A stretch of 32,000 nucleotides of DNA, taken from assembly GCA_963741285.1 (NCBI GenBank), contig CAVUHH010000007.1, forward strand, positions 106,483 through 138,482, written 5' to 3'. The position numbers and the translations under genes are program-made. The DNA is from an uncultured Actinomycetota bacterium. Lineage in GTDB: Bacteria > Actinomycetota > Actinomycetes > Actinomycetales > Micrococcaceae. The notes below the pieces were generated by a model. It was not told the DNA's origin, ran no database searches, and was given only the letters and a program-made list of their open reading frames with translations. Of the stretch, positions 9,239 to 28,640 are shown piece after piece; the stretch's first letter is position 1; every line of letters begins with the position of its first letter.

Positions 9239-9281
9239 CCCTACCCCACTTGATCCCTCGCCCTACCCCAGTTACTAAAAT
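9239..9281 (+). promoter_or_regulatory. SARP-style direct repeats plus -10-like element upstream of the SARP gene
   Basis: The perfect 10-mer CCCTACCCCA occurs at 9239-9248 and 9261-9270 (22-bp period), followed 5 nt later by TAAAAT (9276-9281). SARP activators classically bind direct repeats with 11/22-bp periodicity just upstream of the -10. Confidence 0.4.
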
Positions 9282-9351
9282 GACTTGACATGATTGGGCC
9301 AAGTGCCACGATGGTAGCTGGAGGACGCGTGGATCCGGCCGCTTGAGAGGG

Positions 9352-11166: not shown

Positions 11167-12327
11167 CTAGCCCCGCTGCTCGGGGCCGCCCTTCGGAACG
11201 GGCACTGACCAGCGCTCCTCGATGTGGCCGAAACGCCACACGCCCAGGGCAAGGAGCCAGGTGAAGATGAACAGCGCAACCGTGGTGTATCCGACGGCCG
11301 CGAGGTCCAGTCCGCCAATCACAGCCAGGGGCCCTGAGCGGATCCCGGCGCTGTCCACCAGGAGGGAAATCAGCTGCACAGAGCCGATGCCCAACGCTAC
11401 TGCCACGGACAAGCCAGTCACCACCACGTTGTAATAGATCCTGCGGATGGGCCGGGAAAGCGCCCACCGGTAGGCGAATGTCATGAAGCAGCCGTCGAGC
11501 GAGTCGAGCAGGCTCATGCCCGCCGCGAAGAGGACCGGCAGCGTGAGGATCGCGTACCACGGCAGCGCCGACGCAGCGGCTCCCGCGGCCAGGATGAGCA
11601 GGCTTACCTCCGTGGCAGTGTCAAACCCCAGGCCGAACAGCAGCCCCACCCCATACATCTGCCAAGGCTTGGTGATCAGGCGTGTGAACCTGCCGAAGAG
11701 CCGCGTCATCAGTCCGCCGGAGAACGGCTGGGTCTCCAAACCGGCGTCCTTGTTTTGGCTGGACCGCAGCCGCCGCGCCGATCGGAGTACTTCCAGGAGC
11801 ATCACCAGGTTCAGGGCACCAATGAGGTAGAGAAAGAGGCCCGAGACTGCCGTTCCGAAGACCTGCAGGCCAGCCTCGGTTTCGCCCGAAACCACTCCAC
11901 CCTGGTCCGACAGGCTTCGGATTCCGGCGGCCAGCAAAGCACACAGGCCAAAGACGATGCTCGAGTGGCCCAGGGAGAACCAGAAACCCACTGTCATGGG
12001 CCGGGCTCCCAACCGGGAGTGCCCGTCACCCGAAAGTTTCCGCGTGGTGTTATCGATGGCGGCGATGTGATCGGCGTCGAACGCGTGGCGGAGCCCCAAG
12101 GTATACGCGGCGACGCCCAGGCCAACACCGAAAACGCCGGACGAGCCCGCGGGAAGGTTTCCGGGTGCCACGACTGCCAGGAGCACACCCCAGCCCACTA
12201 CATGGAGCAGCAACACCACGGCTGCCATTCCTGCGATCGAGGACCGCTCCCGCCTGGTCAAAACGATTGCGGACCGACCTGTCGAGGCCTCGGGCTGCGT
12301 GCTGTTTTCAGCTTCCGGTTGCTTCAC
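11167..12327 (-). CDS. hoxN: NiCoT-family high-affinity nickel/cobalt permease (HoxN/HupN/NixA type)
   Basis: Carries the signature RHAFDADHIAAIDNTTRK (HX4DH), plus FSLGHSS and LGFDTATE. The GTG start at 12327 is preceded by GGAGG 7 nt upstream. It is divergent from hypA. Confidence 0.9.
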   Translation of the reverse strand: MKQPEAENSTQPEASTGRSAIVLTRRERSSIAGMAAVVLLLHVVGWGVLLAVVAPGNLPAGSSGVFGVGLGVAAYTLGLRHAFDADHIAAIDNTTRKLSGDGHSRLGARPMTVGFWFSLGHSSIVFGLCALLAAGIRSLSDQGGVVSGETEAGLQVFGTAVSGLFLYLIGALNLVMLLEVLRSARRLRSSQNKDAGLETQPFSGGLMTRLFGRFTRLITKPWQMYGVGLLFGLGFDTATEVSLLILAAGAAASALPWYAILTLPVLFAAGMSLLDSLDGCFMTFAYRWALSRPIRRIYYNVVVTGLSVAVALGIGSVQLISLLVDSAGIRSGPLAVIGGLDLAAVGYTTVALFIFTWLLALGVWRFGHIEERWSVPVPKGGPEQRG

Positions 12328-12799: not shown

Positions 12800-13692
12800 A
12801 TGTGCGCAACATGCGGCTGCGGCGAGGACGCCACTCCCCGGGTCTATGCCCTCGATGTCCCCAGCGCGCAGGGGCATGGTCACCCCCACAATCACGGGCA
12901 CGACCACACGCACACCCACGATCACGGGCACGACCGGGCCACGCCCACGACCGGGCACGACCACGGCGCACCTGCCACGCGCCGGAGCTCATCCCGCTGG
13001 AGCAGAACCTGCTGGCCAAGAACGACCTCCTCGCCGAACGGAACCGCGGCTGGCTGGCGGGACGGAAAGTGCGGGCGCTGAACATGATGAGCTCGCCCGG
13101 CGCCGGGAAGACCACGCTCCTGGTGCGGACGCTCACGGAACTGGGAGACAGGCTGCAGGCCGGGGTCATCGAAGGGGACCAGGAAACCTCTCTCGACGCC
13201 GACCGGATCCAGGCCGCCGGGCGGCCCGTGGTGCAGATCAACACCGGAGCGGGCTGCCACCTCGACGCCGACATGCTCCGCCGCGGACTCGACGCGCTCG
13301 ATCCTCCGATGGGTTCAACCGTGTTCATCGAGAACGTGGGAAATCTCGTCTGCCCCGCCCTCTTCGACCTGGGCGAAGCAGCCAAAGTAGTAGTCGTCTC
13401 AGTGACGGAAGGTGATGACAAACCGCAGAAATACCCGCACATGTTCATCGCAGCTGACCTGGTGATCATCAACAAGTCGGACCTGCTCCCCTACGTCGAG
13501 TTCGACGTCGACGAATGCGTTCGCCGTATCCGTCACCTCAACGCCCACGCAGAATTCCTGGTCCTCTCAGCCACTACCGGCGACGGCGTTGCCGCCTGGT
13601 ATGACTGGCTGGACGGCGTTCCCTCCCGGACAGAGACCCGCGTAGGGTCTTCGACAGGGCCTCTGGAAGAGTCCCTGACAGACGCACACTGA
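12800..13692 (+). pseudogene. hypB: Hydrogenase nickel-incorporation GTPase HypB, frame-disrupted inside/after the His-rich tract as read
   Basis: The N-terminus MCATCGCGEDA plus HGHPHNHGHDHTHTHDHGHD is in the frame of ORF 12800-13081. The G-domain (ELIPLEQNLLAKNDLLAERNRGWL, P-loop SSPGAGKTTLL, ENVGNLVCPA, NKSDLL) is in the frame of ORF 12802-13692. The switch lies between about 12935 and 12990. Confidence 0.85.
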
Positions 13693-13723: not shown

Positions 13724-14782
13724 ATGCCTACCGAAACTTCCCTCAAGGCCGAAGAAACCCTGATTCACGTGCTCTGGATCAACGCAGGGCTGAGCTGCGA
13801 CGGCGATTCCGTCGCCCTGACAGCAGCCACCCAGCCCAGCGTGGAGGAAATCGCCCTCGGCGCCCTGCCTGGCCTGCCCCGCATCGCCATGCACTGGCCC
13901 CTGATCGATTTCGAGTGCGGCCCCCAGGAAGGGGCGGACGACTTCCTGGAGTGGTTCCGCAAAGCGGACCGCGGCGAGCTGGAGCCGTTCGTCCTGGTGG
14001 TGGAAGGGTCCATCCCGAATGAGAAACTGCACGACGCCGGGGGCTACTGGTGCGGGTTCGGCAACGACCTGGCCACGGGACAGCCGATAACCACCAGTGA
14101 ATGGCTGGACCGCCTGGCACCTAAGGCCACGGCCATCATCGCTGCCGGCACCTGTGCAACATACGGCGGCATCCATGCCATGGCGGGAAACCCCACCGGC
14201 GCCATGGGCGTTCCCGACTACCTGGGCTACGACTGGAAATCCAAGGCCGGCATCCCCATCGTCTGTGTTCCGGGCTGCCCCATCCAGCCGGACAATCTCT
14301 CCGAAACCATGACCTACCTCCTGTACCAGGCCACCGGACAGGCCCCGATGATTCCGCTGGATGATGCGCTGCGGCCCACGTGGCTGTTCGGGAAGACCGT
14401 CCATGAAGGCTGTGACCGCGCGGGCTACTACGAACAGGGCGACTTCGCCACGGAGTACGGCTCCCCCAAGTGCATCGTCAAGCTCGGATGCTGGGGCCCG
14501 GTGGTCAAGTGCAACGTGCCCAAGCGTGGCTGGATGAACGGGATCGGCGGCTGCCCCAACGTTGGCGGCATCTGCATCGGCTGCACCATGCCGGGCTTCC
14601 CGGACAAGTTCATGCCCTTTATGGACGAGCCACCCGGCGGCAAGCTCTCCACCAGCACCATCCGCCCCTACGGCGCCGCAATCAGGGCACTGCGCGGCAT
14701 CACCACCCACACGCTGGACCAGGAGCCCAAGTGGCGCCGGCCCGGACGCGAACTGCTGACCGGCGCACAGCGGACCTGGTAG
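13724..14782 (+). CDS. hhyS: [NiFe]-hydrogenase small subunit, group 1h (Hhy/Hof type)
   Basis: LIHVLWINAGLSCDGDS, AAGTCATYGGI, CVPGCP and the distal cluster motifs GCWGPVVKCNVPKRGW...CIGCTMPGFPDKF are present. There is no twin-arginine signal at the N-terminus, as expected for group 1h. RBS is GAAAGAGG. Confidence 0.92.
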   Translation: MPTETSLKAEETLIHVLWINAGLSCDGDSVALTAATQPSVEEIALGALPGLPRIAMHWPLIDFECGPQEGADDFLEWFRKADRGELEPFVLVVEGSIPNEKLHDAGGYWCGFGNDLATGQPITTSEWLDRLAPKATAIIAAGTCATYGGIHAMAGNPTGAMGVPDYLGYDWKSKAGIPIVCVPGCPIQPDNLSETMTYLLYQATGQAPMIPLDDALRPTWLFGKTVHEGCDRAGYYEQGDFATEYGSPKCIVKLGCWGPVVKCNVPKRGWMNGIGGCPNVGGICIGCTMPGFPDKFMPFMDEPPGGKLSTSTIRPYGAAIRALRGITTHTLDQEPKWRRPGRELLTGAQRTW

Positions 14783-14809
14783 TCCCCCCTTTCCAGACAG
14801 GTGAAGAAC

Positions 14810-16603
14810 ATGACCTCAACGATTCCTATGCCGTCCGGAAGCGGGACGGATAACAGCAACCTCGTGGAGATGGCCTGGGATCCCATCACCCGGATTGTGG
14901 GCAGCCTGGGCATCTACACCAAGATTGATTTCGCGAACAACCAGGTAGTGGAGTGCAAGAGCACGTCCTCGATCTTCCGCGGCTATTCCATTTTCATGAA
15001 GGGCAAGGACCCGCGGGACGCCCACTTCATCACCAGCCGCATCTGCGGGATCTGCGGCGACAACCACGCCACCTGTTCCTGCTACGCGCAAAACATGGCC
15101 TACGGCGTGAAGCCACCGAACCTGGGTGAATGGATCGTGAACCTGGGCGAGGCCGCGGAGTACATGTTCGACCACAACATCTTCCAGGAGAACCTGGTGG
15201 GCGTGGACTACTGCGAAAAGATGGTCTCCGAAACCAACCCCGGCGTCCTGGCCAAGGCTGAGAACACCCGGGCACCGCACGAGGGCGACCACGGCTACCG
15301 GACCATCGCCGACATCATGCGCTCACTGAACCCGTTCACCGGCGAGTTCTACCGCGAGGCGCTGCAGGTCAGCCGCGCCACCCGCGAGATGTTCTGCCTC
15401 ATGGAAGGCCGCCATGTGCATCCGTCCACGCTCTACCCCGGCGGGGTGGGGACCGTGGCCACCATCCAGCTCATGACCGACTACATCACCCGGCTGATGC
15501 GCTACGTGGAATTCATGAAGAAAGTCGTGCCCATGCATGACGACCTCTTCGACTTCTTCTACGAGGCGCTGCCCGGCTACGAGCAGGTGGGCCTGCGCCG
15601 GACGCTGCTGGGCTGCTGGGGCTCCCTCCAGGACCCTGACTACTGCAATTTCGAGTACAAGGACATGACCGAGTGGGGCCGCAAGATGTTCGTCACCCCG
15701 GGCGTGGTGGTGGACGGCAAGCTGGTCACCACGGACCTGGTCCGGATCAACCTGGGCCTGCGGATCATGCTGGGGTCCTCCTACTACGAGGACTGGGAAG
15801 ACCAGGAGATGTTTGTGACCCGCGATCCGCTGGGCAACCCGGTGGACCGCCGCCATCCCTGGAACCAGCACACCAATCCGCGGCCGCAGAAGAGGGACCT
15901 GAAGGAGAAGTACAGCTGGGTCATGTCACCGCGCTGGTTCGACGGCGAGAACAACCTTGCCCTGGACACCGGAGGCGGCCCGCTGGCGCGGCTCTGGGCC
16001 ACGGCCCTGGCCGGGCTGGTGGACATCGGCTACCTCAAGGCCACCGGCAGCAGCGTGCAGATCAACCTTCCCAAGACAGCGCTCAAAGGCCCCGTCACCT
16101 TTGAATGGAACATCCCGCAGTGGAGCAACACCCTGGAACGCAACCGGGCCCGCACCTACTTCCAGGCCTACGCGGCCGCAGCGGCCCTCCATTTCGCGGA
16201 GAAGGCGCTGGAGGAAATCCGGGCCGGCCGGACCAAGACCTGGGAGACGTTCACGGTTCCGGACGAAGCCATCAGCTGCGGCTTCACCGAAGCGGTCCGC
16301 GGCGTCCTGTCCCACCACATGGTGATCCGGGACGGCAAGATCGCGAACTACCACCCCTACCCGCCCACCCCCTGGAACGCCAGCCCCACTGACTCCTCCG
16401 GCACACCCGGCCCGTATGAGGACGCGGTTCAGGGCCAGCCGATCTTCGAGGAGAACGACCGCGAGCACTTCAAGGGGATCGACATCATGCGCACGGTCCG
16501 GAGCTTCGACCCGTGCCTGCCGTGCGGTGTCCATATGTACCTGGGCAACGGCCAGACCCTGGAACAGCTGCACTCGCCCACCCAGACCCTCACCGGAGAG
16601 TAA
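14810..16603 (+). CDS. hhyL: [NiFe]-hydrogenase large subunit, group 1h (Hhy/Hof type)
   Basis: The L1 motif TSRICGICGDNH and the L2 motif SFDPCLPCGVH are the group 1h (formerly group 5) signatures. The C-terminal extension MYLGNGQTLEQL... after the His is the expected protease substrate. An alternative start is GTG 14801. Confidence 0.95.
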   Translation: MTSTIPMPSGSGTDNSNLVEMAWDPITRIVGSLGIYTKIDFANNQVVECKSTSSIFRGYSIFMKGKDPRDAHFITSRICGICGDNHATCSCYAQNMAYGVKPPNLGEWIVNLGEAAEYMFDHNIFQENLVGVDYCEKMVSETNPGVLAKAENTRAPHEGDHGYRTIADIMRSLNPFTGEFYREALQVSRATREMFCLMEGRHVHPSTLYPGGVGTVATIQLMTDYITRLMRYVEFMKKVVPMHDDLFDFFYEALPGYEQVGLRRTLLGCWGSLQDPDYCNFEYKDMTEWGRKMFVTPGVVVDGKLVTTDLVRINLGLRIMLGSSYYEDWEDQEMFVTRDPLGNPVDRRHPWNQHTNPRPQKRDLKEKYSWVMSPRWFDGENNLALDTGGGPLARLWATALAGLVDIGYLKATGSSVQINLPKTALKGPVTFEWNIPQWSNTLERNRARTYFQAYAAAAALHFAEKALEEIRAGRTKTWETFTVPDEAISCGFTEAVRGVLSHHMVIRDGKIANYHPYPPTPWNASPTDSSGTPGPYEDAVQGQPIFEENDREHFKGIDIMRTVRSFDPCLPCGVHMYLGNGQTLEQLHSPTQTLTGE

Positions 16604-16609
16604 GCCGCC

Positions 16610-17527
16610 ATGCCCGGCGGGGAACGGCCGCTGCAGACCGGCGAGCGCATCAGTACGCTCCTCGACGCGCTCGGGGCCGGCGGCGCGGTTGCCCGCGGCC
16701 GTGCCGAAGACCTGGTCCGCCAGGTCACCGACATGTACGGCTCCGGGCTGGAACGGATCCTGGAAATCCTGGATGAGCGGGGAAAGCTCGACGACGGCAC
16801 GCTGGCGGCGCTGGCCGCCGACGAGCTCGTGTCCGGGCTGCTCATCATCCACGGCCTGCACCCCGAGTCGATGGCGACGAGGGTGGCGGGCGCCCTGGAC
16901 AGCGTCCGGCCATACCTTGGGTCCCATGGCGGAGACGTTGAACTGCTGGACATCAGCCCGGAGGGCGTGGTGCGGCTGAAGCTGCTCGGCACCTGCCAGG
17001 GCTGCCCGTCGTCGTCCGTTACGTTGAAATTTGCCGTCGAAGAGGCGATCGAAACGGCTGCCCCGGAGGTCACCGCCATCGAAGTGGTGGAAGCCGAAAA
17101 GCACGCCGCCACCCCCGCGTTCATCCCCGTGGACTCCCTGCTGGTCAGGATGAACCACACAGACCAGCAGGAGGGGTCCTGGGAGCCGGTACCGGGCGTC
17201 GCCGATCTGGAACCGGGCGACGTGGCCGGGTTCCAGGTGGGCGGCTATTCGCTCCTGGCCTGCCGGACCGGGCAGGACGTCTATGCGTACCGGGATTTCT
17301 GCCCGCGCTGCGAAGGCTCCATGGCGGGCGCCGTGCTGCAGCGCGCCCTGGCTGCCCCTGCCGGCGGCGGCCTGCTGCGCTGTCCCACCTGCCGCGCACA
17401 CTTCGACGTCCGCCAGGCCGGCTCCTGCTTGGAGGACCGAAGCCTGCATCTGGATCCGCTCCCACTGCTCGTACGCGGTGGCGTGATGTCCGTTGCCGTG
17501 CCGGTTGCCGCAGGCAAGGGCGGCTGA
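16610..17527 (+). CDS. NifU-like domain fused to a Rieske-fold-like Cys4 domain (HhyE-type putative Fe-S protein)
   Basis: The central VRPYLGSHGGDVELLDI...LLGTCQGCPSSSVTLKFAVEEAI is a NifU C-terminal domain. The C-terminal YAYRDFCPRCEGS...LRCPTCRAHFDV has CxxC...CxxC where a Rieske domain has CxH...CxxH. It starts 6 nt after the hhyL stop. Confidence 0.75.
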   Translation: MPGGERPLQTGERISTLLDALGAGGAVARGRAEDLVRQVTDMYGSGLERILEILDERGKLDDGTLAALAADELVSGLLIIHGLHPESMATRVAGALDSVRPYLGSHGGDVELLDISPEGVVRLKLLGTCQGCPSSSVTLKFAVEEAIETAAPEVTAIEVVEAEKHAATPAFIPVDSLLVRMNHTDQQEGSWEPVPGVADLEPGDVAGFQVGGYSLLACRTGQDVYAYRDFCPRCEGSMAGAVLQRALAAPAGGGLLRCPTCRAHFDVRQAGSCLEDRSLHLDPLPLLVRGGVMSVAVPVAAGKGG

Positions 17528-17528
17528 G

Positions 17529-18200
17529 ATGGAATCGCCCGGCCTGCCCGTAGCGCTGCTGCGACGGATCGCCGCCGCCCCGCCGGCCGCTCCCGCCGGC
17601 GAGCGCTGCGAAATGTGCGGGGAGCCCATCGCCTCCGAACACCAGCACGTCGTGGACCTGGACAGCCATGCCATGATGTGCACCTGCCGGCCCTGCTACC
17701 TCCTCTTTACGGACAGCAATGCCCACCTGAGGTACCGGTCCGTGCCGGACCGGTACCTGTCCTTCCCCGATTTTGAGCTGGGCCCGGGCCAGTGGGACGA
17801 GCTGGAGATTCCCGTGGGACTGGCGTTCTTCTTCCGCAGTTCCAGGATGGAGCGGACGGTGGCGTTCTATCCCGGCCCTGCCGGTGCCACCGAATCCGAA
17901 CTGCCGCTGGACGCCTGGGATGCCGTGATGGCGCGGAATCCGGCCCTGTCCATAGCGGCCCCGGACACCGAGGCCCTCCTGATCCGGGGGCCCGGCCAGG
18001 AACGCCCCCAGGCCGACTGCCACCTTGTCCCCGTGGACGCCTGTTATGAACTGGTGGGACACCTGCGGCGCCTGTGGCGGGGTTTCGACGGCGGCCAGGA
18101 GGCCCGCGACCAGCTCACCTCCTTCTTCGCAAAGATCAGCAGCCGCAGCACCCCGGTCCACGAAACCACCCGGCAATCAACGTCCGGAGGCCTGCCGTGA
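17529..18200 (+). CDS. Conserved hydrogenase-cluster protein of unknown function (DUF5947-like, Cys-rich N-terminus)
   Basis: The ATG lies 1 nt after the preceding TGA. It carries the motif CEMCGEPIASEHQHVVDLDSHAMMCTCRPCYLLF. The family name is from memory and unverified. Confidence 0.65.
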   Translation: MESPGLPVALLRRIAAAPPAAPAGERCEMCGEPIASEHQHVVDLDSHAMMCTCRPCYLLFTDSNAHLRYRSVPDRYLSFPDFELGPGQWDELEIPVGLAFFFRSSRMERTVAFYPGPAGATESELPLDAWDAVMARNPALSIAAPDTEALLIRGPGQERPQADCHLVPVDACYELVGHLRRLWRGFDGGQEARDQLTSFFAKISSRSTPVHETTRQSTSGGLP

Positions 18201-18879
18201 TCGCCCTGGCCTTCGACGTCCTGGACATCCAACCGGAACCGTATGCGGCAGCGCCCCAGCTCACCGCGACGCTGCGGGTGACCGAGTCCACCGGGGCCGC
18301 AGTACACGCCATCGCCCTGCGCTGCCAGGTCCGGATCCTGCCCCAGCGCCGCGGCTACACACCCGAGGAAGAGTCCGGTTTGCTGGACCTCTTCGGCGAG
18401 CGCGGCCGCTGGCCCACCACCCTGAAGTCCTTCCTCTGGCTGCAATGCAGCACCATGGTCCAGGGCTTCACCGGCCAAACCGAGGTTCGGCTCCCGCTGC
18501 CCTGCACTTTTGACTTCGACGTTTCCGCCGCCAAGTACCTGCAGTCCCTGCGTGACGGTTTGGTCCCGCTGGAACTGCTGTTCTCCGGCACGGTTTTCAC
18601 CAGGGGTGAGGCAGGCTTCGGCGTGGAGCAGGTGCCTTGGGACCTCGAAGCCTCCTACCGGCTGCCGGTCGACGCATGGCGCCGGCTGATGGACCAGTAC
18701 TTCCCCCACACCGGCTGGCTGCGCCTGGACCGGGACGTGCTCGCAGCCCTGCTGCATTACAAGGCGGCCCGGGGCCTGACCTCCTGGGATGCCACCGTGG
18801 AGAGCCTGCTGGCCACGCCGCGGCGGTGGCCCCTGCGGCCCTGTCAGGAAGTTCGCTGTCAGGAGACCCGCTGCCATGA
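18197..18879 (+). CDS. Conserved hydrogenase-cluster protein of unknown function (DUF6084-like); 3' end probably frame-shifted
   Basis: The GTG at 18197 overlaps the upstream TGA (GTGA). As read, the frame runs on to 19132, 257 nt into the next gene. A 1-nt shift near 18811-18825 would end it at TGA 18877-18879, forming an ATGA overlap with the next start. Confidence 0.55.
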
Positions 18880-20282
18880 GCATGAGCCTGAGCCTCGCCC
18901 GCGCCGTGGCGGATGCCGTCCTGTACGAGGGCTACCTGCTCTACCCGTACCGCGCGTCCTCGCAGAAGAACCAGGCCCGGTGGCAGTTTGGCATCCTTGG
19001 CCCGCCAGGCGCCGCCGCTTCCGGCTCCGGCGAGGAAGCGGACATGTTCGCCGACTGCCTGCTCACCCCCGGCCCGAAGGCTGCCGTCGAAATTCATCTG
19101 CGTTTCCTGCAGCTCCAGGGGCGGTCGGCTGAGAAAGCGGACGACGACGGAGGGTTCACGGCGGTGGATGAGCTCACGGTCGGTGCCGCCCGCTGGCTGA
19201 GCTGGGACGAGGCGGTGGAGCGGGAAGTCACGCTGGGGCCGATCGCTGTGGCCGGGCTCAGCGGGCAGCCGACGGTTCTGCCGGTGGAGGTTCCCGGCGG
19301 CGAGGACACCGAGGAACTGCGCGACGCATCGGGGCGGCTGGCTGGGAGGCTGGTCCGCCGTCGTCGGCCGCTTCATGCTGAGGTGGGGCTGGCAGCGGCG
19401 TCAGCCGCAGGTGCCTTGGTGAGACTGCGGGTCGGCGTAGAAAATGTCGGGGTTGTTGAGACGGCCGCGAACGCAGGGGCGGGCGGTGCGGCTGGCTGGA
19501 GCAGGCAGGATGCGATCGCCGAATCCTTTATCGGCACGCACCTGCTCCTGAGCGTTCAGGACGCAGATTTCCTCTCCCTGTTGGAGCCACCACCCAACGC
19601 GGCCGCCGCGGCGGCCGCCTGCGGGCAGCACCGGTGCTGGCCCGTTTTGGCCGGTCCGGAGGGGCAGTCGGATGTGCTGCTGGTTTCCCCGATCATTTTG
19701 TACGACCACCCCGCCGTTGCCCCCGAAAGCTCGGTGGCACTGTACGACTCCACCGAAATCGACGAGATCCTGACGCTGCGCGTGCTGACCCTTACCGACG
19801 AGGAAAAGGCCGAAGCCCGCGCCACCGATCCACGGGCGGCTGCCATTATCGACCGGTGCGAGGCCATGTCCCCCGAAGAGCTGCAGCAACTGCATGGCAT
19901 CCTGCGCAATCCCCATGCCATGGACATTCCAGAACTCCATGAAGGACGCGGCGACCCGCAAGATGCGTGGTGGACGCCCGAAGCCGAAGCCCTGGTCCAG
20001 CCCCACCTGGATGCCGTGCTGATCAACGGGGTTCCGGTGGCCCGGGGCAGCCGCGTCAGGGTCAATCCGAGCCGGCGCGCCGATGCCCAGGACCTGTTCT
20101 TCGCCGGGCAGACGGGCCGCGTTACCAACGTCCACTTCGACGTTGACGGCAGCACCCATGTTGGCCTCGTCCTCGAGCAGGACCCGGCCGCAGACCTCCA
20201 CGAGGGCTACGGCAGGTCCTTCTATTACTCACCCGAAGAGCTCGAACCCCTGGGTCCGGATGGAAAGGAAGGCCCGCCATGA
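18876..20282 (+). CDS. Conserved hydrogenase-cluster protein of unknown function (468 aa)
   Basis: Starting from ATG 18876 (MSMSLSLARAVADAVLYEGYLLYPYRASSQKNQARWQFGILGP). The composition is balanced and the ORF is intact. No domain is recognised. Confidence 0.65.
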   Translation: MSMSLSLARAVADAVLYEGYLLYPYRASSQKNQARWQFGILGPPGAAASGSGEEADMFADCLLTPGPKAAVEIHLRFLQLQGRSAEKADDDGGFTAVDELTVGAARWLSWDEAVEREVTLGPIAVAGLSGQPTVLPVEVPGGEDTEELRDASGRLAGRLVRRRRPLHAEVGLAAASAAGALVRLRVGVENVGVVETAANAGAGGAAGWSRQDAIAESFIGTHLLLSVQDADFLSLLEPPPNAAAAAAACGQHRCWPVLAGPEGQSDVLLVSPIILYDHPAVAPESSVALYDSTEIDEILTLRVLTLTDEEKAEARATDPRAAAIIDRCEAMSPEELQQLHGILRNPHAMDIPELHEGRGDPQDAWWTPEAEALVQPHLDAVLINGVPVARGSRVRVNPSRRADAQDLFFAGQTGRVTNVHFDVDGSTHVGLVLEQDPAADLHEGYGRSFYYSPEELEPLGPDGKEGPP

Positions 20283-20398
20283 GAATCATAGGAATGGCCA
20301 CCGTAGCGTTGCTGGCAGGGTTGGCACTCGGCGCCATCTACGTTGGGATCCGGTCAGTTCCGGACATCCAGCGTTATCTGAAGGCACGGCGGATGTGA
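20279..20398 (+). CDS. 39-aa single-pass membrane micro-protein (not in the ORF track)
   Basis: ATG 20279 overlaps the TGA of the preceding gene (ATGA). It translates by hand to MRIIGMATVALLAGLALGAIYVGIRSVPDIQRYLKARRM, one hydrophobic helix plus a basic tail. It ends 7 nt before the protease gene. Confidence 0.5.
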   Translation: MRIIGMATVALLAGLALGAIYVGIRSVPDIQRYLKARRM

Positions 20399-20405
20399 CC
20401 CCGGG

Positions 20406-20906
20406 ATGACTGTTCTGGTTGCAGGCGTAGGCAACATGTTCCTGCGCGATGACGGTTTTGGGCCGGAGGTGGCCCGCCGGCTGGCTTCGGACGGACGGCT
20501 TCCGGCCGGCGTGGACGTAGTGGATTACGGCATCCGCGGGATGCACCTCGCGTACGACCTCCTTGCCGGTGTGGACGTGCTGGTGCTGGTGGACGCCGTG
20601 CCGCCGGGCCCCGGGACAGAACGCGATGAGTCCCGGCCGTCAGCTCCAGGCACCCTCCGGGTGCTCCGGATACACAACGAGGATCTCGACGGCGGCGCCT
20701 CCCTGGACCCCCACGGCATGGACCCTGCCGCCGTCCTGGGCAGGCTCCGGACACTGGGCGGCGAGGTTCCCGTGACGTACGTGGTGGGCTGCGTTCCGGC
20801 TGACCTCACCGAGGGCGTGGGCCTGACTCCCCCGGTGGCCGCAGCTTTGCCCGGGGCGGTTGCCGCCGTCGTCGATCTCCTCAGCCAGCACACCTCCAGA
20901 ACCTAA
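20406..20906 (+). CDS. hupD: Hydrogenase maturation endopeptidase (HupD/HyaD/HybD family)
   Basis: MTVLVAGVGNMFLRDDGFGPEVARRL ... VVDYGIRGMHLAYDL ... LDPHGMDP are the conserved metal-ligand Asp/Asp/His contexts of this protease family. Confidence 0.85.
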   Translation: MTVLVAGVGNMFLRDDGFGPEVARRLASDGRLPAGVDVVDYGIRGMHLAYDLLAGVDVLVLVDAVPPGPGTERDESRPSAPGTLRVLRIHNEDLDGGASLDPHGMDPAAVLGRLRTLGGEVPVTYVVGCVPADLTEGVGLTPPVAAALPGAVAAVVDLLSQHTSRT

Positions 20907-20916: not shown

Positions 20917-21183
20917 ATGTGCCTCGGAATCCCCGGCCGGGTCATCGGCCCCATTGATGGCTACGGCGATCAGCTCGCCCTGGTGGACGTGGCCGGCGTA
21001 CAGCGGAAGATCAACATCGGGCTCCTGGACGAGGGACCGCTGCCGCCGGGCAGCTGGGTCCTGATCCATATGGGCTTCGCCCTCGAGCGCGTGGATCCGG
21101 CGGGTGCGGAACGGGCGATGAGCGGCCTGGAACTGATGGGCCAGCCGCGGCAATCCGACGACCCCCACGCCGGCGCCGGCTGA
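20917..21183 (+). CDS. hypC: Hydrogenase assembly chaperone HypC/HupF family
   Basis: Starts MCLGIPGRVI with the essential N-terminal Cys2. 88 aa. Confidence 0.9.
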   Translation: MCLGIPGRVIGPIDGYGDQLALVDVAGVQRKINIGLLDEGPLPPGSWVLIHMGFALERVDPAGAERAMSGLELMGQPRQSDDPHAGAG

Positions 21184-21221: not shown

Positions 21222-21605
21222 ATGACACCGATGAATCCGTCCGAGCCGACCGGCTCTGAACCACGCGACACTGGGCCCCGCGATCCCGAACCAAACGGCG
21301 GGGAGCAGGGAACCTCGCCGGGCACCGCCCGCGCGTGGGGCAGCGAACCGCCGCTGAAAGAGCCCGCGCAGCCGGGTGCTGATGAGACACCCGAGGACGC
21401 GGCCATGGCTCCGGACGGCGTCGGCGAGAGCACCACCAGGCGTGGCGAGGACGTCGTCAAGGAGGAAGGCAAAGAGGCCGGCCGCGAAGACACCGGCACC
21501 GACGCAGGCCCGGTGGAGCGTCCCACCGGTGAATCCTCTCCCCGCGATGCGACTGGCGTCGAGACTCCGGAGGACCCCGATTCCGCGGCTCCACAGTCAC
21601 CGTAG
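21222..21605 (+). CDS. Acidic, Pro/Gly/Glu/Thr-rich, probably intrinsically disordered protein (127 aa)
   Basis: A strong RBS (AAGGAG) lies 7 nt before ATG 21222. The sequence is low-complexity (PEDPDSAAPQSP-type). No fold or family is recognised. Confidence 0.45.
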   Translation: MTPMNPSEPTGSEPRDTGPRDPEPNGGEQGTSPGTARAWGSEPPLKEPAQPGADETPEDAAMAPDGVGESTTRRGEDVVKEEGKEAGREDTGTDAGPVERPTGESSPRDATGVETPEDPDSAAPQSP

Positions 21606-21683: not shown

Positions 21684-22451
21684 TCAAGGGCGATGGCTGC
21701 GCCGCGATGTTCCACGCCGCATGTTGGCGATCCTGAGGTGCCTGCCGGTAAAGAGTTTCAACTGCTGCAACTGGTGGGGTGTCAGCCGGTCACAGACCCA
21801 GTCCCAGTGCAGCGACACCACGTCACCCGCTGCGAGCCCGGCAATGAAGCCGGTTCCGTTGACTGCATACTTGGCGGTTTCCACCACGGGTTCGCCCACG
21901 GCCAGGGAAGTCCCGTCCCATGTCAGGGGACGGGACTTGACCACGGCTTCATCGCCCGTAATGGCCAGGACTTCGCCCCACCGGATCCGGCAGCGGTCCA
22001 GGACGTTCAGCGCCGTGGCGTAGCGGCGGTCATCACGCAGCAGCCCCAGCCAGGGATAGATTTCGAAGACGTGGAAGCTGTGGTGCGGGACGCCGCCCGC
22101 CAGGACGCCTTCCACGAGGTGCGGAAACTGCCGGCCGGTGCGGGCACGGAACCGGTCTTCCATCGAGTTGCCCATCATGCTGATGCCTACGGTGTCCAGG
22201 AGGCTGTTTCCCACCCAGTAGGCCTCCACCACGCGGGCGTCCAGCGGGTCGTGGATGCCGTGGGAACCGGCAATGAGTTCCAGGTAGGGCCAGGCTCCGG
22301 CAAAGCCCTTCGCGAGTTCGCGCAGGCCCTGGTCGGTGACGCCGGACTGGCCGTAGTGCAGCAGCGCGTCACTGTCGGGAGGGCCGCAGCTGCCTCGGGA
22401 ATTGGGCGGGTACGCGTACCGGACAAACAACTGGGCACCATCGACAACCAT
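21684..22451 (-). CDS. Conserved hypothetical protein (DUF6390-like)
   Basis: 255-aa intact ORF with balanced composition. The N-terminal FVRYAYPPNSRGSCGP resembles what I recall of DUF6390 (unverified). It is convergent with the hydrogenase operon. Confidence 0.55.
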   Translation of the reverse strand: MVVDGAQLFVRYAYPPNSRGSCGPPDSDALLHYGQSGVTDQGLRELAKGFAGAWPYLELIAGSHGIHDPLDARVVEAYWVGNSLLDTVGISMMGNSMEDRFRARTGRQFPHLVEGVLAGGVPHHSFHVFEIYPWLGLLRDDRRYATALNVLDRCRIRWGEVLAITGDEAVVKSRPLTWDGTSLAVGEPVVETAKYAVNGTGFIAGLAAGDVVSLHWDWVCDRLTPHQLQQLKLFTGRHLRIANMRRGTSRRSHRP

Positions 22452-22603: not shown

Positions 22604-23758
22604 ATGGCATCCACTGATCTGAACCGCCGCGCCGCCCTACAACTTCTGGTGGCGGGAGGCTCCGCAGCCCTGCTGGCAGGATGCGCCGGCACCCCTGGTT
22701 CGCCGCCGTCGTCGGGCCTTGCCACGAACGGCGCGAACGGCGGCAGCGGCGCGATCAGCGTCACCGATCAGCGTGGCAAAACCCTGACCTTTGCCCGGCC
22801 GGTGACGCGGGTGGTGACCATCCCCATGCCGGCGGCGTCGTTGCTGGTGGCCGTGGACCGGACCGCGGACCACCTCGCGGCCATGCACAACGCCTCCTGG
22901 GTGGCCATGCGCGACGGGATTATGGGCACCATCTTCCCCAAGGCCCTGGAGCTGCCGCACGAGATCGCCACCCAGGACTTCACGGCCAATGTGGAGAGCG
23001 TCCGTGCCCTGGACCCGGACGTGGTGATCCAGTGGTCCGACGCGCAGCTCATCGACCCGCTGGAAAAGGCCGGCCTGAACGTCATCGGGCTGACCAACAG
23101 GGGCAAGCAGGAGGATGTGGACGCGTGGGTGGCCATGTTCGCCGCCATGCTGGGAAAGCCCGAACGTGCCGTGGATATCAGGACCCGGAGCGATATGGAA
23201 CTGGCCGTGGTCAAGGATCTGGCAGCCGGCAGGGCCTCAACCGGGCCCAGCATCCTGTACTTCAACCGCTTCACCGGTGGCCTGAAGGTGGCCGCGGCCA
23301 ACAGCTACAACGACTTCTACATCAAGCTGGTGGGTGGCACGAATCCCGCCACCGGGGACGATCCGCTGAAGGGGTCGGGGATGGTGGGCCTGGACGTGGA
23401 GCAGGTGCTCCGCTGGGATCCGGAGATCATCCTGCTGGGGAATTTCGACAACGCCATGCCGCAGGACCTCTACTCAGACCCTGTCTGGCAGACCGTGTCC
23501 GCGGTCAGGAACCGGCGTGTCTACAAGGTGCCGCTGGGTGGGTACCGGTGGGATCCTCCCGGGCAGGAATCACCGCTGATGTGGCACTGGCTGAGCGATA
23601 TCGCGTTCCCCCAGCAGCAGTCCCTCCTCAGGAACAAGGTGGTGGAGTACTTCGATTTCCTGTACAGCCACAAACCCTCCGCGGCCGAACTGGACAAAAT
23701 CCTGTGGACCACCGCCAACGCCGACTCTGACCACTACCGGCAGTTCAATGCTGCATGA
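22604..23758 (+). CDS. ABC transporter substrate-binding lipoprotein, FecB/FhuD/BtuF (cluster A-2) type
   Basis: Has a Tat-like RRAALQLL and the lipobox LLAGC. The body resembles iron-siderophore/cobalamin-type binding proteins (VVTIPMPAASLLVAVD..., WDPEIILLGN, RRVYKVP). Confidence 0.8.
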   Translation: MASTDLNRRAALQLLVAGGSAALLAGCAGTPGSPPSSGLATNGANGGSGAISVTDQRGKTLTFARPVTRVVTIPMPAASLLVAVDRTADHLAAMHNASWVAMRDGIMGTIFPKALELPHEIATQDFTANVESVRALDPDVVIQWSDAQLIDPLEKAGLNVIGLTNRGKQEDVDAWVAMFAAMLGKPERAVDIRTRSDMELAVVKDLAAGRASTGPSILYFNRFTGGLKVAAANSYNDFYIKLVGGTNPATGDDPLKGSGMVGLDVEQVLRWDPEIILLGNFDNAMPQDLYSDPVWQTVSAVRNRRVYKVPLGGYRWDPPGQESPLMWHWLSDIAFPQQQSLLRNKVVEYFDFLYSHKPSAAELDKILWTTANADSDHYRQFNAA

Positions 23759-23819
23759 CGCCAGCGACGAACGGCTTGACGCCGGCCGCGGTCCGGGCAT
23801 CCCGGTGGCCCGGACCCGG

Positions 23820-24907
23820 ATGCAGGCGCGGCCGGGAACGTTGACGACGGCGTCCGGCCGCGTGGGGAGCCCGTCGGCGGCGGGCGGCGGGGACCGTCAG
23901 CCCTCAAGCCGATCGCCATCAGCGCAGTCTTCCTGGTCACCGTGACCCTGGTGGCCCTGGCCGTGGGCCGGTACAACGTTCCGCTCTGGCACGTGGTGCA
24001 GATCCTCGTGGGGCAGGTCGTCCCGGTCCCTGTCGAGGCAACCGCCACGGAGGAAAATGTGGTGCTGCTGGTCAGGCTGCCCCGTGTGCTGCTGGCACTG
24101 CTGGTGGGCGGCGGCCTGGCCATCGGCGGCGCGGCGCTGCAGGCCATCTTCCACAATCCGCTGGTCAGTCCGGACATCATCGGCGTGTCTGCGGGTGCGT
24201 CCTTCGGCGGGGCGCTGGCGCTCCTTCTGGGCCTGGGGACGTTCGCGCTCATCACGAGTTCCTTCGCGTTCGGCCTGGTTGCCCTGGCCACGCTGTTCCT
24301 GATCACATCCGGGCGCGGCGGGACTCCCCTGCTGATGATTGTGCTGGGCGGCGTGGTCACGGGCTCGTTCTTCTCCGCGCTGGTTGCCCTGGTCACCTAC
24401 ATCGCGGATCCGAACACCACGTTGCCGGCCATCGTGTTCTGGCTCCTGGGCAGCGTGGCCACTGCCACGTTCGGCAAGGTGGTGGTGGCACTGATTCCCG
24501 TTGTGGGCGGCGCACTGGTGCTCCTGGCGCTGCGCTGGCGCATCAACGTGCTCTCCCTGGGCGACGACGACGCTGCCGCCCTCGGGGTCCGGCCCCGGCC
24601 GCTGCGCTGGGTGGTGCTGGTTTCGGTGGCCCTGATCGTGGCCGGGGCCGTCGCGGTCAGCGGCGCGGTCAGCTGGGTGGGGCTGGTGATCCCCCACCTG
24701 GCGAGGATGTGGGTGGGTCCGGACCACCGCGTGCTGCTGCCGGTCTCCTTCCTCCTGGGGGGCGCCTACATCATGCTGGTGGACACTGTGGCACGGACAG
24801 CGACGGCGGGCGAGATCCCGCTCGGCGTGCTGACGGCGCTCATCGGGGCGCCTGTCTTTTTTGTCCTGCTGCGCCGGAACCGGGACAGGATCTGGGAAAG
24901 TGCTTGA
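23820..24907 (+). CDS. FecCD-family ABC permease; 5' end unresolved (probable frameshift near 23865-23895)
   Basis: The intact ORF 23942-24907 has FecCD hallmarks (LLVGGGLAIGGAALQAIFHNPLVSPDIIGVS, IPLGVLTALIGAPVFFVLL). However, TM1 (LKPIAISAVFLVTVTLVALAVG) extends upstream of the GTG at 23942, and there is no in-frame start back to the stop at 23777. ATG 23820 (MQARPGTL...) in another frame could join it through a G-run indel. Confidence 0.8.
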
Positions 24908-25643
24908 GCTGGAGGGCGTTGGCTTCGGCTACGGCAGGACGGATTGGGTGTTCCGGAATGTCAGCTTCCAGGTGCTGCCTGGGACCGCCACCGCCGTCCT
25001 GGGACCCAATGGCAGCGGCAAAACCACGCTGGTGCGCTGCGCCGCCGGGCTGCTCGCCCCAGTGGAGGGAAGCGTCACCCGGGCGGCCAGGGCCGGCTAC
25101 GTCCCGCAGGCCCATGGCAGTACGTTCGCTTACCGTGCCCTGGACATGGTGCTGATGGGACGGGCACGGCAGATCGGCCTCTTCCGTTCGCCGGGTGCGG
25201 CGGACCGGGCTGCCTCACTGGAGGCAATGGAACGGGTGGGCATCGCCGGCCTCCGCAGCAGGTTTTTCCCCACGCTCAGCGGGGGCGAGCAGCAGCTGGT
25301 CCTGATCGCCCGGGCCATCGCGGCCGGCTGCCCCGTCCTGGTGCTGGACGAGCCCGCCACCGGCCTGGACCTGAAAAACCAGGTCCGCGTCCTGCGGCTC
25401 CTGCGCGAACTGATGACGGACGGCATGGCCGTGCTCCTCAGCACCCACCACCCGGACCACGCCCTGTACGTCGCGGACCGCGCAGTCCTGCTCTCCCCCA
25501 CTGGTCCCCGGACCGGCGACGCCCGGGAACTCCTGAGCGAGAAGGAACTCACGGCGCTGTATGGCGTCGGCGTCAGCACCGTGCCGTATGTCGATGGACC
25601 AAGCACCCGCCGGACCGTGGTGGTGCACTACGGCGACCAGTGA
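24900..25643 (+). CDS. ABC transporter ATP-binding protein (FepC/FecE type)
   Basis: Walker A GPNGSGKTT, signature LSGGEQQ, Walker B VLVLDEP. The GTG at 24900 overlaps the permease stop by 8 nt. Confidence 0.9.
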   Translation: MLELEGVGFGYGRTDWVFRNVSFQVLPGTATAVLGPNGSGKTTLVRCAAGLLAPVEGSVTRAARAGYVPQAHGSTFAYRALDMVLMGRARQIGLFRSPGAADRAASLEAMERVGIAGLRSRFFPTLSGGEQQLVLIARAIAAGCPVLVLDEPATGLDLKNQVRVLRLLRELMTDGMAVLLSTHHPDHALYVADRAVLLSPTGPRTGDARELLSEKELTALYGVGVSTVPYVDGPSTRRTVVVHYGDQ

Positions 25644-25798
25644 GAGAGCGTCCCGGGAAAACCCACATTAAGTGATAGACGGTCTGTTCCGGGTAGACGC
25701 TCTCTCACTTAATGCAGGAAATCCACAAGCGCTCTCTCACTTTCTTTAGGAAAGTGAGAGAGCGATTGGGAAAAACCCGCATTAAGTGAGAGAGCGTC
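25640..25798. repeat. Cluster of five GTGAGAGAGCG-core repeats in both orientations forming nested or alternative hairpins
   Basis: Forward copies are at 25640-50, 25754-64 and 25786-96; reverse copies are at 25698-708 and 25730-40. There is a perfect 15-bp hairpin (25730-44 / 25750-64, loop TTTAG). An 18-bp perfect inverted repeat (20 bp with flanks) joins 25696-25715 to 25779-25798 and encloses that hairpin. 25640-52 is also complementary to 25696-708. A direct ~114-bp periodicity is visible (GGGAAAACCCACATTAAGTGA vs GGGAAAAACCCGCATTAAGTGA). Confidence 0.8.
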
Positions 25799-25814
25799 CG
25801 GGGGGGTGGAGGGG

Positions 25815-28640
25815 TTAGCCGGTGTTGCGCAGGCCGGCGGCCACCCCGTTGACGGTGATCAGCATGGCCCGCTGGAGGCGTTCGTCGATCTCGGCGTTGC
25901 TGATGCTTTCGTCTTCTGAGGCCTGGGCCGCCCGGATCGCGCCGGAGGAGCTCCACCTGCAGGTAGCTGATGGGGTCCAGGTACTGGTCGCGGATCTCCA
26001 GGGAACGCTTGAGCGTGGGCTGGGCGTCCAGGAGCGTGTTCTCGCCGGTAAGGCTCTGGATCTCCCTGACCGTGAGCTCGTACTCCTCGCGGATGGTGCG
26101 GAAGATGCGGTGCAGCTCCTCAGGAACCAGCGTGGCCACGTAGTACCCGGCGATGTCCAGGTCCGTCTTGGCCAGGGTCATCTCCACGTTGGAAAGGACA
26201 GAGCGGAAGAAGTGCCAGTGCTCCATCATCTCCACCAGCTGGCCCGAGTGGCCGGCCTCGCGGGCCGCCTTCAGGCCCGAGCCCACACCGAACCAGCCAG
26301 GCACGATCTGCCGGGACTGGGTCCAGCCGAACACCCACGGGATGGCGCGGAGGCCACCGAGGCCGGCCCCGGAATCGGGCCGCTTGGACGGACGGGAGCC
26401 GATGTTCAGCGAGCCCAGCTGCTCCACCGGGGTGGAGGCCAGGAAATATGCGGGCAGGTCAGGATCGTCGATGAGCTTCCGGTACCGGTCAAAGGCGCCG
26501 TCGGAGATGGTCTCCATGACGTGGCCGTACCGCTCGCGCTGGTCATCGGAGGTGCGCGGGGTCACGGTGCAGCGCCGAGCCCTGGAGCACCGCGGCGAGC
26601 GAGAGCTCCAGGTTCTCCCGGGCCAGCTCCGGCAGGGAGTACTTGTCCGAGATGACCTCGCCCTGTTCGGTGAACTTGATCTCGCCTTCCAGGACTCCGT
26701 TGGGCTGGGCCATGATGGCGTCATAGGTGGGTCCGCCGCCACGGCCCACGGAACCGCCGCGGCCGTGGAACAGGCGGACCCGGACGCCGTGCTTGGCCGC
26801 CACGTCGCGCAGGTTGCGCTGGGTCTTGTGGATCTCCCACTGGCTGGTCATCACACCGGATTCCTTGTTGGAGTCCGAGTAGCCGAGCATGATTTCCTGG
26901 ACGTCGCCGCGCAGCCGGACCAGGTCGCGGTAGGACGGGACGGACAGCAACTGGTCCACGATCTCAGCCGAGGCCCGCAGTTCCTCCACGGTTTCCAGCA
27001 GCGGCGCGAAGCCGATCTTCGCGTACGGCGACGCGCCAAAGAGGTTGATCAGGCCGGCTTCGCGCGCCAGGACCGCTGCGGCCAGGACGTCGTCCGCGCC
27101 GCGGGTCATGGAAATGATGTAGGTTTCGACGACGTCCGGACCGTACGTGCGCAGGGCGCGGCGGATCTCACGGAAGACGTCGTACGTTCCGTCAGCGACG
27201 CCGTCGAGCTTGATCGGGTGGCCGGAGAGCGGGCGGCGGGAGGCCAGTTCCGATCCCAGCACCTCGAAGCGTTCGTCCCGGCTCAGTTCCGCGTAGCGGA
27301 TGCCCGGGCCGCCGAGCCGGTCCATCAGCTGGCCGACGGCGTCGTGGTGGTGGTCGGCGTGCTCGCGGATGTCCAGGGTGGCCAGGTGCAGGCCAAACGA
27401 CGCAACGGCGCGGCGGACGCGGGCCAGCGCACCGTCGGCTGCGAGCGACGCCGAGTGGTTTCGGAGCGACAGCTCCAGCAGTTCAAGGTCGGTCAGCAGT
27501 TCGCTGGTGGAGCTGTAGTCCCGGCCGTGTTCATGGTTGGAGTCCGCGGCCACGCGCTTGCCGGTGTTGATGAGCTTGGCCTTGATGCACGTGAGCTTAA
27601 GGCGGTAGGGCTCCTGGGCGTTGAGTTCCAGGACGCGGCGGTCCAGGCCCGGGAGCTTTTTCAGGTCCGCCTCGATGGAGTCCAGCAGGCCCTTGTCCGC
27701 ACCGGCCAGCGAGGTGGAGTTGGACAGGATGGAGATCAGTTCGTCCATCATCGCGATGCTGATGCGGACGGCGTGCTGGTTCTGGATCTGCAGGATTTCC
27801 CTGGTGACCGCCGCCGTGACGTTGGGGTTGCCGTCCCGGTCGCCGCCGATCCAGGAGCCAAACCGGATGGGGGCGTCCTGGGACGAGAGGCTGACGCCGT
27901 GCTCGCCGAGCAGTTCCGAGAAATCCGACAGCATCTCAGGCATGGCGTCGGTCAGGATGCCGCCGAGGTAGTAGATGGCGTTGCGGGCCTCGTCCACCGG
28001 GGTGGGGCGCACCTGGCGCAGCTCGTCCGTCTGCCACATCTGGTCGATGACCTCGGACAGCTGGCGGTCCTGCCGGCGGCGGGCGGTGGTGCCTTCCTTC
28101 GTGGATTCGGACAGCACATCGGAGAGCTTGCGGATCTTGTCCAGCACGGAACGGCGCGAGGCCTCGGTGGGGTGGGCGGTGAAGATGGGGCGGACGTCCA
28201 GCCCGTTGACCACTTCCTGCAGCCGTCCGGGTCCCGCCTGGGCGGCGATGTCGGCGACGGCCTTGGCCAGCCAGCCGTCCTTTTCCTGCCGGGTCCGCAG
28301 GCGTGCGGACGCGGTGGACCTGTTCGGCCGCGTTGGCGAGGTGGAAGTAGAACGCGAACGCGCGCACCAGGTCGGTGGCCTGCTCAATCGGCAGGGAGCC
28401 GAGCAGTTCGCGGACCTGCTCGACGACGTCGTGCGCGCTCCAGGGCCCGGTGGCGTCAGCTCCGCCGCGGGCCGCTTCCTTGGATTCCTTGGTGAGGAGG
28501 CGGACCTGCTCCACCAGGTCCAGGAGCTCAGGGCCGTGCTGGCGCACCAGGGATTCGCCCAGCAAGGAGGTGACGCGCCGGACGTCGGCCCTCAGTTCAG
28601 AGGCAAGGTCGGTTGTGGGATTCACTGCAGTGTTAGCCAT
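25815..28640 (-). pseudogene. ppc: Phosphoenolpyruvate carboxylase, split over four frame segments as read (three frameshifts)
   Basis: The N-terminus [28 protein letters not shown] starts at ATG 28640. It contains [31 protein letters not shown] and [13 protein letters not shown], and the canonical C-terminus [15 protein letters not shown]-stop (TAA, 25815-25817 on the plus strand). Frame changes lie near 28298-28310, 26560-26570 and 25935-25945. Confidence 0.92.

Follow-up and report, generated by a model that had tools for sequence, protein, structure and literature searches.

Genomic Context, Organization and Conservation of the Five-Gene Block

The DNA analysed here (the window) is a stretch of 32,000 nucleotides (nt) of contig CAVUHH010000007.1 from an uncultured Actinomycetota bacterium of the Micrococcaceae, and all positions refer to this window. 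The stretch at 11.1-22.5 kb holds a [NiFe]-hydrogenase cluster of group 1h (Hhy), with the gene order nicO (minus strand), hypA, hypB, hhyS, hhyL, five further genes, hupD/hycI, hypC and a DUF6390 gene (minus strand). The five co-directional genes located between the large-subunit gene hhyL and the maturation protease gene (16610-20398, plus strand) form the block considered in this study. They encode, in order, HhyE, members of the families DUF5947 and DUF6084, a 468-amino-acid (aa) protein designated G4, and a DUF6893 peptide. The comparative data suggest, with a probability of about 0.5, that the block is a maturation/assembly module specific to group 1h hydrogenases.

The genes of the block are tightly packed. 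The TAA of hhyL ends at 16603 and the ATG of gene 1 lies at 16610, leaving a gap of 6 nt, and the TGA of gene 1 ends at 17527, 1 nt before the ATG of gene 2 at 17529. The other junctions are stop/start overlaps, namely GTGA at 18197-18200, ATGA at 18876-18879 and ATGA at 20279-20282. Direct reading revealed Shine-Dalgarno-like GGAG/AGGA motifs 7-9 nt before four of the five starts, within the preceding gene, and a scan of the window found no terminator-like site on the plus strand between hypA and hypC. A preliminary description of this DNA had reported minimal or overlapping junctions with three stop/start overlaps, and every coordinate was confirmed on re-reading; the overlap at 18876-18879, which it had made conditional on accepting a frameshift, also stands, as relatives carry one extra A.

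A scan of a genome collection with the G4 profile matched at least 600 stretches, 591 of which encode a relative; the 80 loci compared below are the best of these matches, chosen on G4. The order hhyS-hhyL-hhyE-DUF5947-DUF6084-G4-(DUF6893)-hupD-hypC was observed in 80/80 loci, as far as their contigs reach. Nearly all loci are labelled as Actinomycetota, with genera ranging from Arthrobacter to Mycobacterium, Nocardia, Rhodococcus and Streptomyces, and the large subunits of 71 actinobacterial loci are 83-99% identical to HhyL of the window. The source genome of the window is a Pseudarthrobacter; entries of Pseudarthrobacter sulfonivorans were identical or near-identical to the 468-aa protein and the 39-aa peptide. 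The 4-nt overlap is retained at the three internal junctions in 42/75, 58/79 and 66/80 loci, so the tight packing exceeds what chance would produce. The overlap between hhyE and DUF5947 is the least conserved of the three (42/75), and the hhyL-hhyE gap measures 3-10 nt in most loci.

The block was also detected outside the Actinomycetota. The megaplasmid pHG1 of Cupriavidus necator carries hofK-hofG-NifU-DUF5947-DUF6084-G4-protease followed by hypFCDEAB, with the DUF5947 gene at the matching position and block junctions overlapping by 1-8 nt, and a Methylocystis plasmid carries DUF6084 and G4. In distant metagenomic homologues (about 36-38% identity), DUF5947, DUF6084 and G4 adjoin hycI, hypC, hypD, hypE and hypF; parts of the block order are kept in these loci, always beside hycI/hypC/D/E/F. 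Co-conservation with group 1h genes, which the preliminary description had named as a check on its proposal, was therefore observed in the 80 loci, on pHG1, on the Methylocystis plasmid and in the distant metagenomic loci.

Proteins Encoded by the Block

Gene 1, hhyE (16610..17527, plus strand), encodes a 305-aa protein with Pfam NifU and Rieske matches, homologous to MSMEG_2718 of Mycobacterium smegmatis (PMC6883350). It comprises an N-terminal helical region, a NifU-like domain (PF01106, E = 5e-22, residues 93-158) with the CxxC motif C129/C132, and a C-terminal Rieske-fold-like domain with four cysteines (Cys4) arranged as CPRC (C231/C234) and CPTC (C258/C261). The pair C129/C132 is kept in at least 95% of 74 HhyE sequences, and the Cys4 domain was found in 73/75 HhyE loci. 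The Pfam Rieske model, whose cutoff is 20.3, scored 21.7 bits; the Rieske_2 score was below its cutoff (23.8 vs 27). Assignment as a true Rieske protein was rejected since CxxC/CxxC, not Cys2His2 (CxH...CxxH), occupies the ligand positions, although the C-terminal fold may be Rieske-like. The gene is located directly downstream of the group 1h large subunit, a position common to 71 loci, and the features that identify HhyE (NifU with CxxC, two C-terminal CxxC motifs and the place after hhyL) are all present. The NifU CxxC, the two C-terminal CxxC motifs and the existence of truncated homologues were described by Islam et al. (2019), for whom HhyE is a NifU-like putative Fe-S protein (PMC6883350).

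Gene 2 (17529..18200, plus strand) encodes a 223-aa protein of the DUF5947 family (Pfam PF19372), matched with 246.3 bits against a gathering threshold of 25 over profile positions 1-176 of 177. Its invariant residues are C27-x2-C30, H38-x-H40, C51-x-C53-x2-C56 and C172; the cysteine motifs read CEMCG and CTCRPC, in addition to HxH, and are followed by an alpha/beta domain. The AlphaFold2 (AF2) model (predicted local distance difference test (pLDDT) 77.7) is confident for the alpha/beta core and of low confidence at the Cys-rich N-terminus. A profile search gave no match among PDB sequences, and Foldseek gave no fold match below E = 0.1; neither a rubredoxin nor a ferredoxin family (Pfam) or fold was matched, the Cys-rich part being modelled at low confidence.

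Gene 3 (18197..18879, plus strand) encodes DUF6084 (Pfam PF19562), 227 aa long after restoring 1 nt. It was matched with 310.4 bits against a threshold of 25 over profile positions 1-208 of 213; the 1-nt deletion removes the last residues. The alignment of homologues shows no conserved cysteine, and a profile search of PDB sequences gave no match. As sequenced, the frame runs open to 19132. One A is missing from the window after 18813 when it is compared with the P. sulfonivorans contig L082 and the Logan contig L083 (97.5% identical); three close relatives have one more base at this point, an A in L082 and L083. Restoring the A yields a 227-aa protein ending exactly at the ATGA, the G+C content of third codon positions passes from frame 2 (DUF6084) to frame 0 (gene 4) at about 18820-18860, and all 80 other loci have a normal in-frame stop. 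A programmed frameshift was rejected, given the extra A in the closest genomes, the normal stop in 80/80 loci and the 1-nt indels in the phosphoenolpyruvate (PEP) carboxylase gene ppc.

The small indels in DUF6084, hypB and ppc are probably best explained, most simply, by assembly error as judged from the alignments; for DUF6084 this explanation is favoured because ppc and hypB are likewise broken by small indels. It is highly improbable that the frameshifted DUF6084 and hypB genes denote a pseudogenised, non-functional block in this strain. The 1-nt deletion in DUF6084 and a net change of -19 nt in the His-rich repeat of hypB, both relative to a P. sulfonivorans contig with 97.5% identity across 14.8 kb, would fit such decay, but the housekeeping gene ppc is also split, the single-base indels are scattered over 15 kb in a pattern typical of assembly error, the remaining cluster genes are intact, and in DUF6084 no more than the final 21 residues are changed, which lie beyond profile positions 1-208.

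Gene 4 (18876..20282, plus strand) encodes G4, a protein of 468 aa without a Pfam or NCBIfam model: searches gave no NCBIfam match, no credible Pfam match (one weak, below cutoff) and no PADLOC match, and a profile search of PDB sequences was also negative. The family includes 3869 cluster representatives (50% identity) at E < 1e-3 and is marked by a nearly invariant N-terminal motif, AVLYEGYxLYPYRxxxxKNxxRWQFG. In the AF2 model (pLDDT 87, predicted template modelling score 0.74), an N-terminal helix precedes this motif; a large antiparallel beta-sheet and a helical bundle come next, and a disordered linker leads to a C-terminal SH3-like barrel. A Foldseek search of the PDB matched the barrel (about residues 375-460) to PetP of cytochrome b6f and to the nitrile hydratase beta subunit with probability 1.0 and target-normalised TM scores of 0.63-0.75; this likeness covers one small domain only, at 14-20% identity. 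According to the model, the barrel is likely a peptide- or protein-docking module, and no further function is drawn from it. A Foldseek match of G4 to DrmA was set aside as weak and poorly superposed (TM 0.23-0.27, root-mean-square deviation 21 Å). Readings as Phage_TAC_7 or as an acyl-carrier-protein-like domain were rejected, the matches being below threshold and the serine not conserved, as was a role in anti-phage defence, for which PADLOC gave no matches. In the alignments of G4 and DUF6084, no set of metal ligands of the kind typical for electron carriers is conserved, and no remote homology was found among DUF5947, DUF6084 and G4.

Gene 5 (20279..20398, plus strand) encodes a 39-aa DUF6893 peptide (Pfam PF21833; 39.8 bits against a threshold of 24.6) with the single transmembrane (TM) helix and tail of this family. 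The consensus is MxxxG-(TM helix)-RS(I/V)PDxxRYLKxRxM-stop, with a basic C-terminal tail. A peptide of this type occupies 67/70 of the gaps between G4 and hupD, mostly overlapping the G4 stop codon, and a diverged copy was detected in the distant locus L084. The peptide is absent in lineages in which the genes for G4 and the protease are fused or directly overlap.

These results agree with the preliminary description on the NifU domain fused to a Cys4 Rieske-fold-like domain, which both Pfam and the reading of the ligands support, on the CxxC...CxCxxC protein, whose motifs proved invariant and whose family is DUF5947, and on the 39-aa membrane peptide, a single TM helix belonging to DUF6893. 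Of the two proteins it had listed as lacking a recognisable domain, the 468-aa one keeps that status and the 227-aa one does not, being DUF6084.

Gene Fusions

Several loci encode neighbouring block proteins as single polypeptides. DUF5947 and DUF6084 are joined in one open reading frame (ORF) of 443 aa (L076:8661-9989), DUF6084 and G4 in a 765-aa protein (one representative, P0244), and G4 and the HycI protease in 7 of the best 150 family representatives (P0149, P0164, P0173, P0197, P0201, P0217 and P0224). The sequenced G4::HycI fusions have linkers of 10-60 residues, and two of them have the expected neighbours, with DUF6084 upstream and hypC-hypD downstream. The fusion chain therefore spans DUF5947, DUF6084, G4 and HycI, and never includes HhyE or DUF6893. 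At the level of predicted proteins, it ties DUF5947, DUF6084 and G4 to the maturation protease rather than to electron transfer. The maturation reading is strengthened because G4 (468 aa) is fused to the HycI/HupD endopeptidase.

One metagenomic locus with a G4::HycI fusion (L090:4777-8092) carries, inside the hyp cluster, a second small-subunit-like gene followed by a gene for a PAS-histidine-kinase-receiver protein; the two may be an H2-sensing regulatory pair.

The limits of the fusion chain also bear on a divided arrangement, in which HhyE would be the first electron acceptor and DUF6893 the anchor of the mature actinobacterial enzyme, and only DUF5947-DUF6084-G4 would take part in maturation with HupD. 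Such an arrangement is consistent with the absence of HhyE and DUF6893 from the chain, with the hhyE-DUF5947 overlap being the least conserved of the three, and with the M. smegmatis gene hhyE being described as associated with the structural operon, not with the maturation operon (PMC6883350). It nevertheless appears somewhat unlikely: the only confidently recognised domain of HhyE is of the NifU/Nfu cluster-carrier type, cysteine-free or truncated HhyE homologues exist, and DUF6893 lies between G4 and hupD, overlapping the G4 stop in most loci.

Functional Interpretation

The block is transcribed together with hhySL and hupD-hypC and coupled to them in translation. In the maturation reading, DUF5947, DUF6084 and G4 would form a complex that acts on the HhyL precursor jointly with the endopeptidase HupD and may hold or protect this precursor during insertion of NiFe(CN)2CO in air and during C-terminal cleavage. 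The NifU-type domain of HhyE would supply HhyS with its Fe-S clusters or repair them, and HhyE proteins that have lost their cysteines may act simply as chaperones. Through DUF6893, this machinery or the completed enzyme would be positioned on the cytoplasmic side of the membrane. A more specific version is possible but less likely than not: DUF5947-DUF6084-G4 could be a previously unrecognised three-protein chaperone that docks the endopeptidase on the HhyL precursor and would be the factor enabling oxygen-insensitive, high-affinity hydrogenases to assemble in air, with DUF6893 as the missing membrane tether of the actinobacterial Hhy enzyme, acting through its invariant ...PDxxRYLKxRxM tail, to which the SH3-like domain of G4 may bind.

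Most likely, the block serves to assemble the enzyme and does not form part of it once it works. Schafer et al. (2013, 2016) reportedly purified and crystallised the C. necator enzyme as small and large subunit only, which argues against the block proteins as stable subunits. The C. necator NifU-family homologue (PHG066) is 192 aa long and lacks both the NifU CxxC and the Cys4 domain, hence has no cysteine ligands, and two actinomycete HhyE copies are truncated to 177 aa. Because of these cysteine-free and truncated copies, and as far as sequence can tell, the universally conserved role of HhyE cannot be electron transfer through its cysteine centres.

Genetic evidence is available for HhyE. 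Its need for Hhy-dependent H2 oxidation is established only for MSMEG_2718 of M. smegmatis: deletion of this gene lowers H2 oxidation, which is abolished once hhyE and hucE are both deleted (PMC6883350). The preliminary description, in which no product had an experimentally defined role, was wrong on this point. Published assignments thus cover part of the block, namely HhyE (PMC6883350), and among the papers searched none was found to assign a function to DUF5947, DUF6084, DUF6893 or DUF6390. Islam et al. proposed HhyE as the immediate electron acceptor and conceded that a maturation role was possible (PMC6883350). They had also stated the candidate status of genes downstream of hhyE, naming MSMEG_2717, the homologue of C. 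necator PHG067 (DUF5947), as a further electron-acceptor candidate (PMC6883350).

An electron relay combined with a membrane tether would extend that proposal to the whole block. The Cys4 centre of HhyE and/or the Cys/His centre of DUF5947 would accept electrons from HhyS, G4 and DUF6084 would form a scaffold like HucM of Huc, and DUF6893 would anchor the complex for menaquinone reduction. Apart from the published acceptor arguments for HhyE and PHG067/MSMEG_2717 (PMC6883350), this extension draws on the Cys4 domain in 73/75 HhyE loci, the invariant CxxC/HxH/CxCxxC residues of DUF5947, the place of hhyE straight after hhyL (3-10 nt in most loci) and the TM peptide DUF6893 with its strongly conserved cytoplasmic tail. 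A tether or acceptor also appears to be missing, since direct reading of the HhyS N-terminus (MPTETSLKAEE...) showed no twin-arginine (Tat) signal and no cytochrome b gene was found in the hydrogenase cluster of the window by ORF reading and Pfam scan. Weighed against this, C. necator has no DUF6893 and its PHG066 is free of cysteine ligands; G4 is repeatedly fused to the maturation protease and not to a redox protein; the block accompanies hyp genes in distant loci; no rubredoxin or ferredoxin family or fold was matched for DUF5947, whose Cys-rich part is modelled at low confidence; and the crystallised C. necator enzyme is said to contain no block proteins. A relay and tether formed by the entire block is therefore unlikely, and an electron-relay or membrane-tether role is possible for HhyE and DUF6893. 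The preliminary description had left the block as a candidate for electron acceptor and tether or for maturation machinery: its maturation part gains from the G4::HycI fusions, and its acceptor part, applied to the whole block, is weakened by the cysteine-free C. necator NifU protein and the reported two-subunit enzyme.

Several points weigh against the maturation module. The fusions indicate a functional link, not a step of action. With the loci selected on G4, the counts give the presence of the block given G4 and not the share of group 1h clusters that carry it. The eight conserved Cys/His residues of DUF5947 could, judging by their pattern, bind a redox-active metal centre. DUF6893 is found neither in C. 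necator nor in several of the distant loci, and its patchy presence would restrict any membrane role to certain lineages. We infer the physical complex, its step of action and the membrane role from the comparative data. The acceptor argument for HhyE has its own basis in the position within the structural operon and in co-migration with HhySL on native gels (PMC6883350).

Earlier publications describe both the block and its standing as a candidate, and the block is a conserved feature of group 1h clusters rather than a discovery. A comparative paper of 2026 reported the cluster as conserved in Rhodococcus equi, M. smegmatis and C. necator and listed the remaining genes as hypothetical proteins (PMC13332983). 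The fusion chain to the protease and the cysteine-free NifU homologue of C. necator are new here. Group 1h hydrogenases, which are oxygen-insensitive, are among the enzymes by which soil bacteria consume atmospheric H2 and are also wanted as air-stable catalysts; the block genes are the best candidates for in-air maturation, membrane attachment and electron acceptance of Hhy. A fusion chain ending in the protease gives a sharper hypothesis, in which DUF5947, DUF6084 and G4 would take part in large-subunit processing, and favours co-expressing these three when Hhy-type enzymes are produced heterologously.

Neighbouring Genes and Assembly Quality

The structural genes flank the block upstream. 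The gene hhyS (13724..14782, plus strand; Pfam Oxidored_q6 and NiFe_hyd_SSU_C) encodes the [NiFe]-hydrogenase small subunit and hhyL (14801..16603, plus strand; Pfam NiFeSe_Hases) the group 1h large subunit. Reading of HhyL revealed the motifs TSRICGICGDNH and SFDPCLPCGVH, which we take to define group 1h/5 large subunits. The C-terminus ...DPCLPCGVH is followed by a 22-aa extension, the expected substrate of the protease. Group 1h membership is indicated by the small subunit without Tat signal, the large-subunit motifs, the lack of cytochrome b and the synteny with hofKG of C. necator. Downstream of the block are located the hupD/hycI-type maturation endopeptidase (20406..20906, plus strand; Pfam HycI) and a hypC/hupF-type chaperone (20917..21183, plus strand; MCLGIPGRV...), for which HupF_HypC was called in L001 and L082, two syntenic loci.

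A DUF6390 protein (303 bits; 21684-22451, minus strand) adjoins hypC. It occurs in most of the 80 related loci, mostly on the strand of the cluster itself, and is another conserved protein of Hhy clusters with no function assigned. Between hypC and DUF6390 lies a 127-aa ORF rich in Pro/Glu/Gly/Thr (21222-21605, plus strand), which was also called in the P. sulfonivorans contig; it gave no Pfam match and may or may not be a real gene. A NicO nickel/cobalt transporter gene (11167-12327, minus strand) is divergent and upstream of hypA, and the cluster is closely followed, on its downstream side, by an ABC importer (periplasmic-binding-protein/FecCD/ATPase; 22604-25650, plus strand). The two transport systems are syntenic in relatives and could provide the hydrogenase with metal.

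The hypB gene (12800-13692) is frameshifted in its His-rich repeat by indels at about 12926-12967, so that the N-terminal part (MCATCGCGED...) and the GTPase part are read in different frames. The ppc gene (25680-28680, minus strand), which encodes 940 aa in the relative, is represented by three ORFs owing to 1-nt insertions after 25938, 26556 and 28301. Further 1-nt indels against the relative occur at 21718, 23788, 23800, 25641, 25800 and 25813. A stretch of about 1.3 kb at about 8060-9340 has a lower G+C content (57% vs about 68%) and only one ORF of at least 110 aa (exactly 110 aa); it is flanked by a macro-domain-like gene and a regulator-like ORF starting at 9343. Rfam and tRNA scans gave no match in the whole window.

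Comparison with Known Systems

The extra Hox and Hup factors of O2-tolerant membrane-bound hydrogenases are needed for assembly in air. Like the block, the genes for HoxL/V/O/Q/R/T and HupF/G/H/I/J/K are hydrogenase-specific accessory genes placed between the structural and hyp genes, and we propose a functional analogy; the block proteins have no sequence or profile similarity to these factors, and only DUF families were matched in Pfam and NCBIfam.

HhyE resembles HucE of the group 2a hydrogenase Huc in combining a NifU-like with a C-terminal Rieske-fold domain, in its position after the structural genes and in the requirement of HucE for H2 oxidation (PMC6883350). The two differ in their ligands, with a true Rieske CxH...CxxC in HucE and two CxxC motifs (Cys4) in HhyE (PMC6883350).

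The hhy/hof set of C. necator differs from that of the window in its short, cysteine-free NifU protein and in having no DUF6893 peptide, and the window copy differs from the M. smegmatis and C. necator sets by its probable sequencing indels. In both organisms (MSMEG_2718, MSMEG_2717 and the later genes; PHG066-PHG070), the interval from the large subunit to the protease holds the same families, identically ordered and with junctions that overlap (PMC6883350; PMC13332983).

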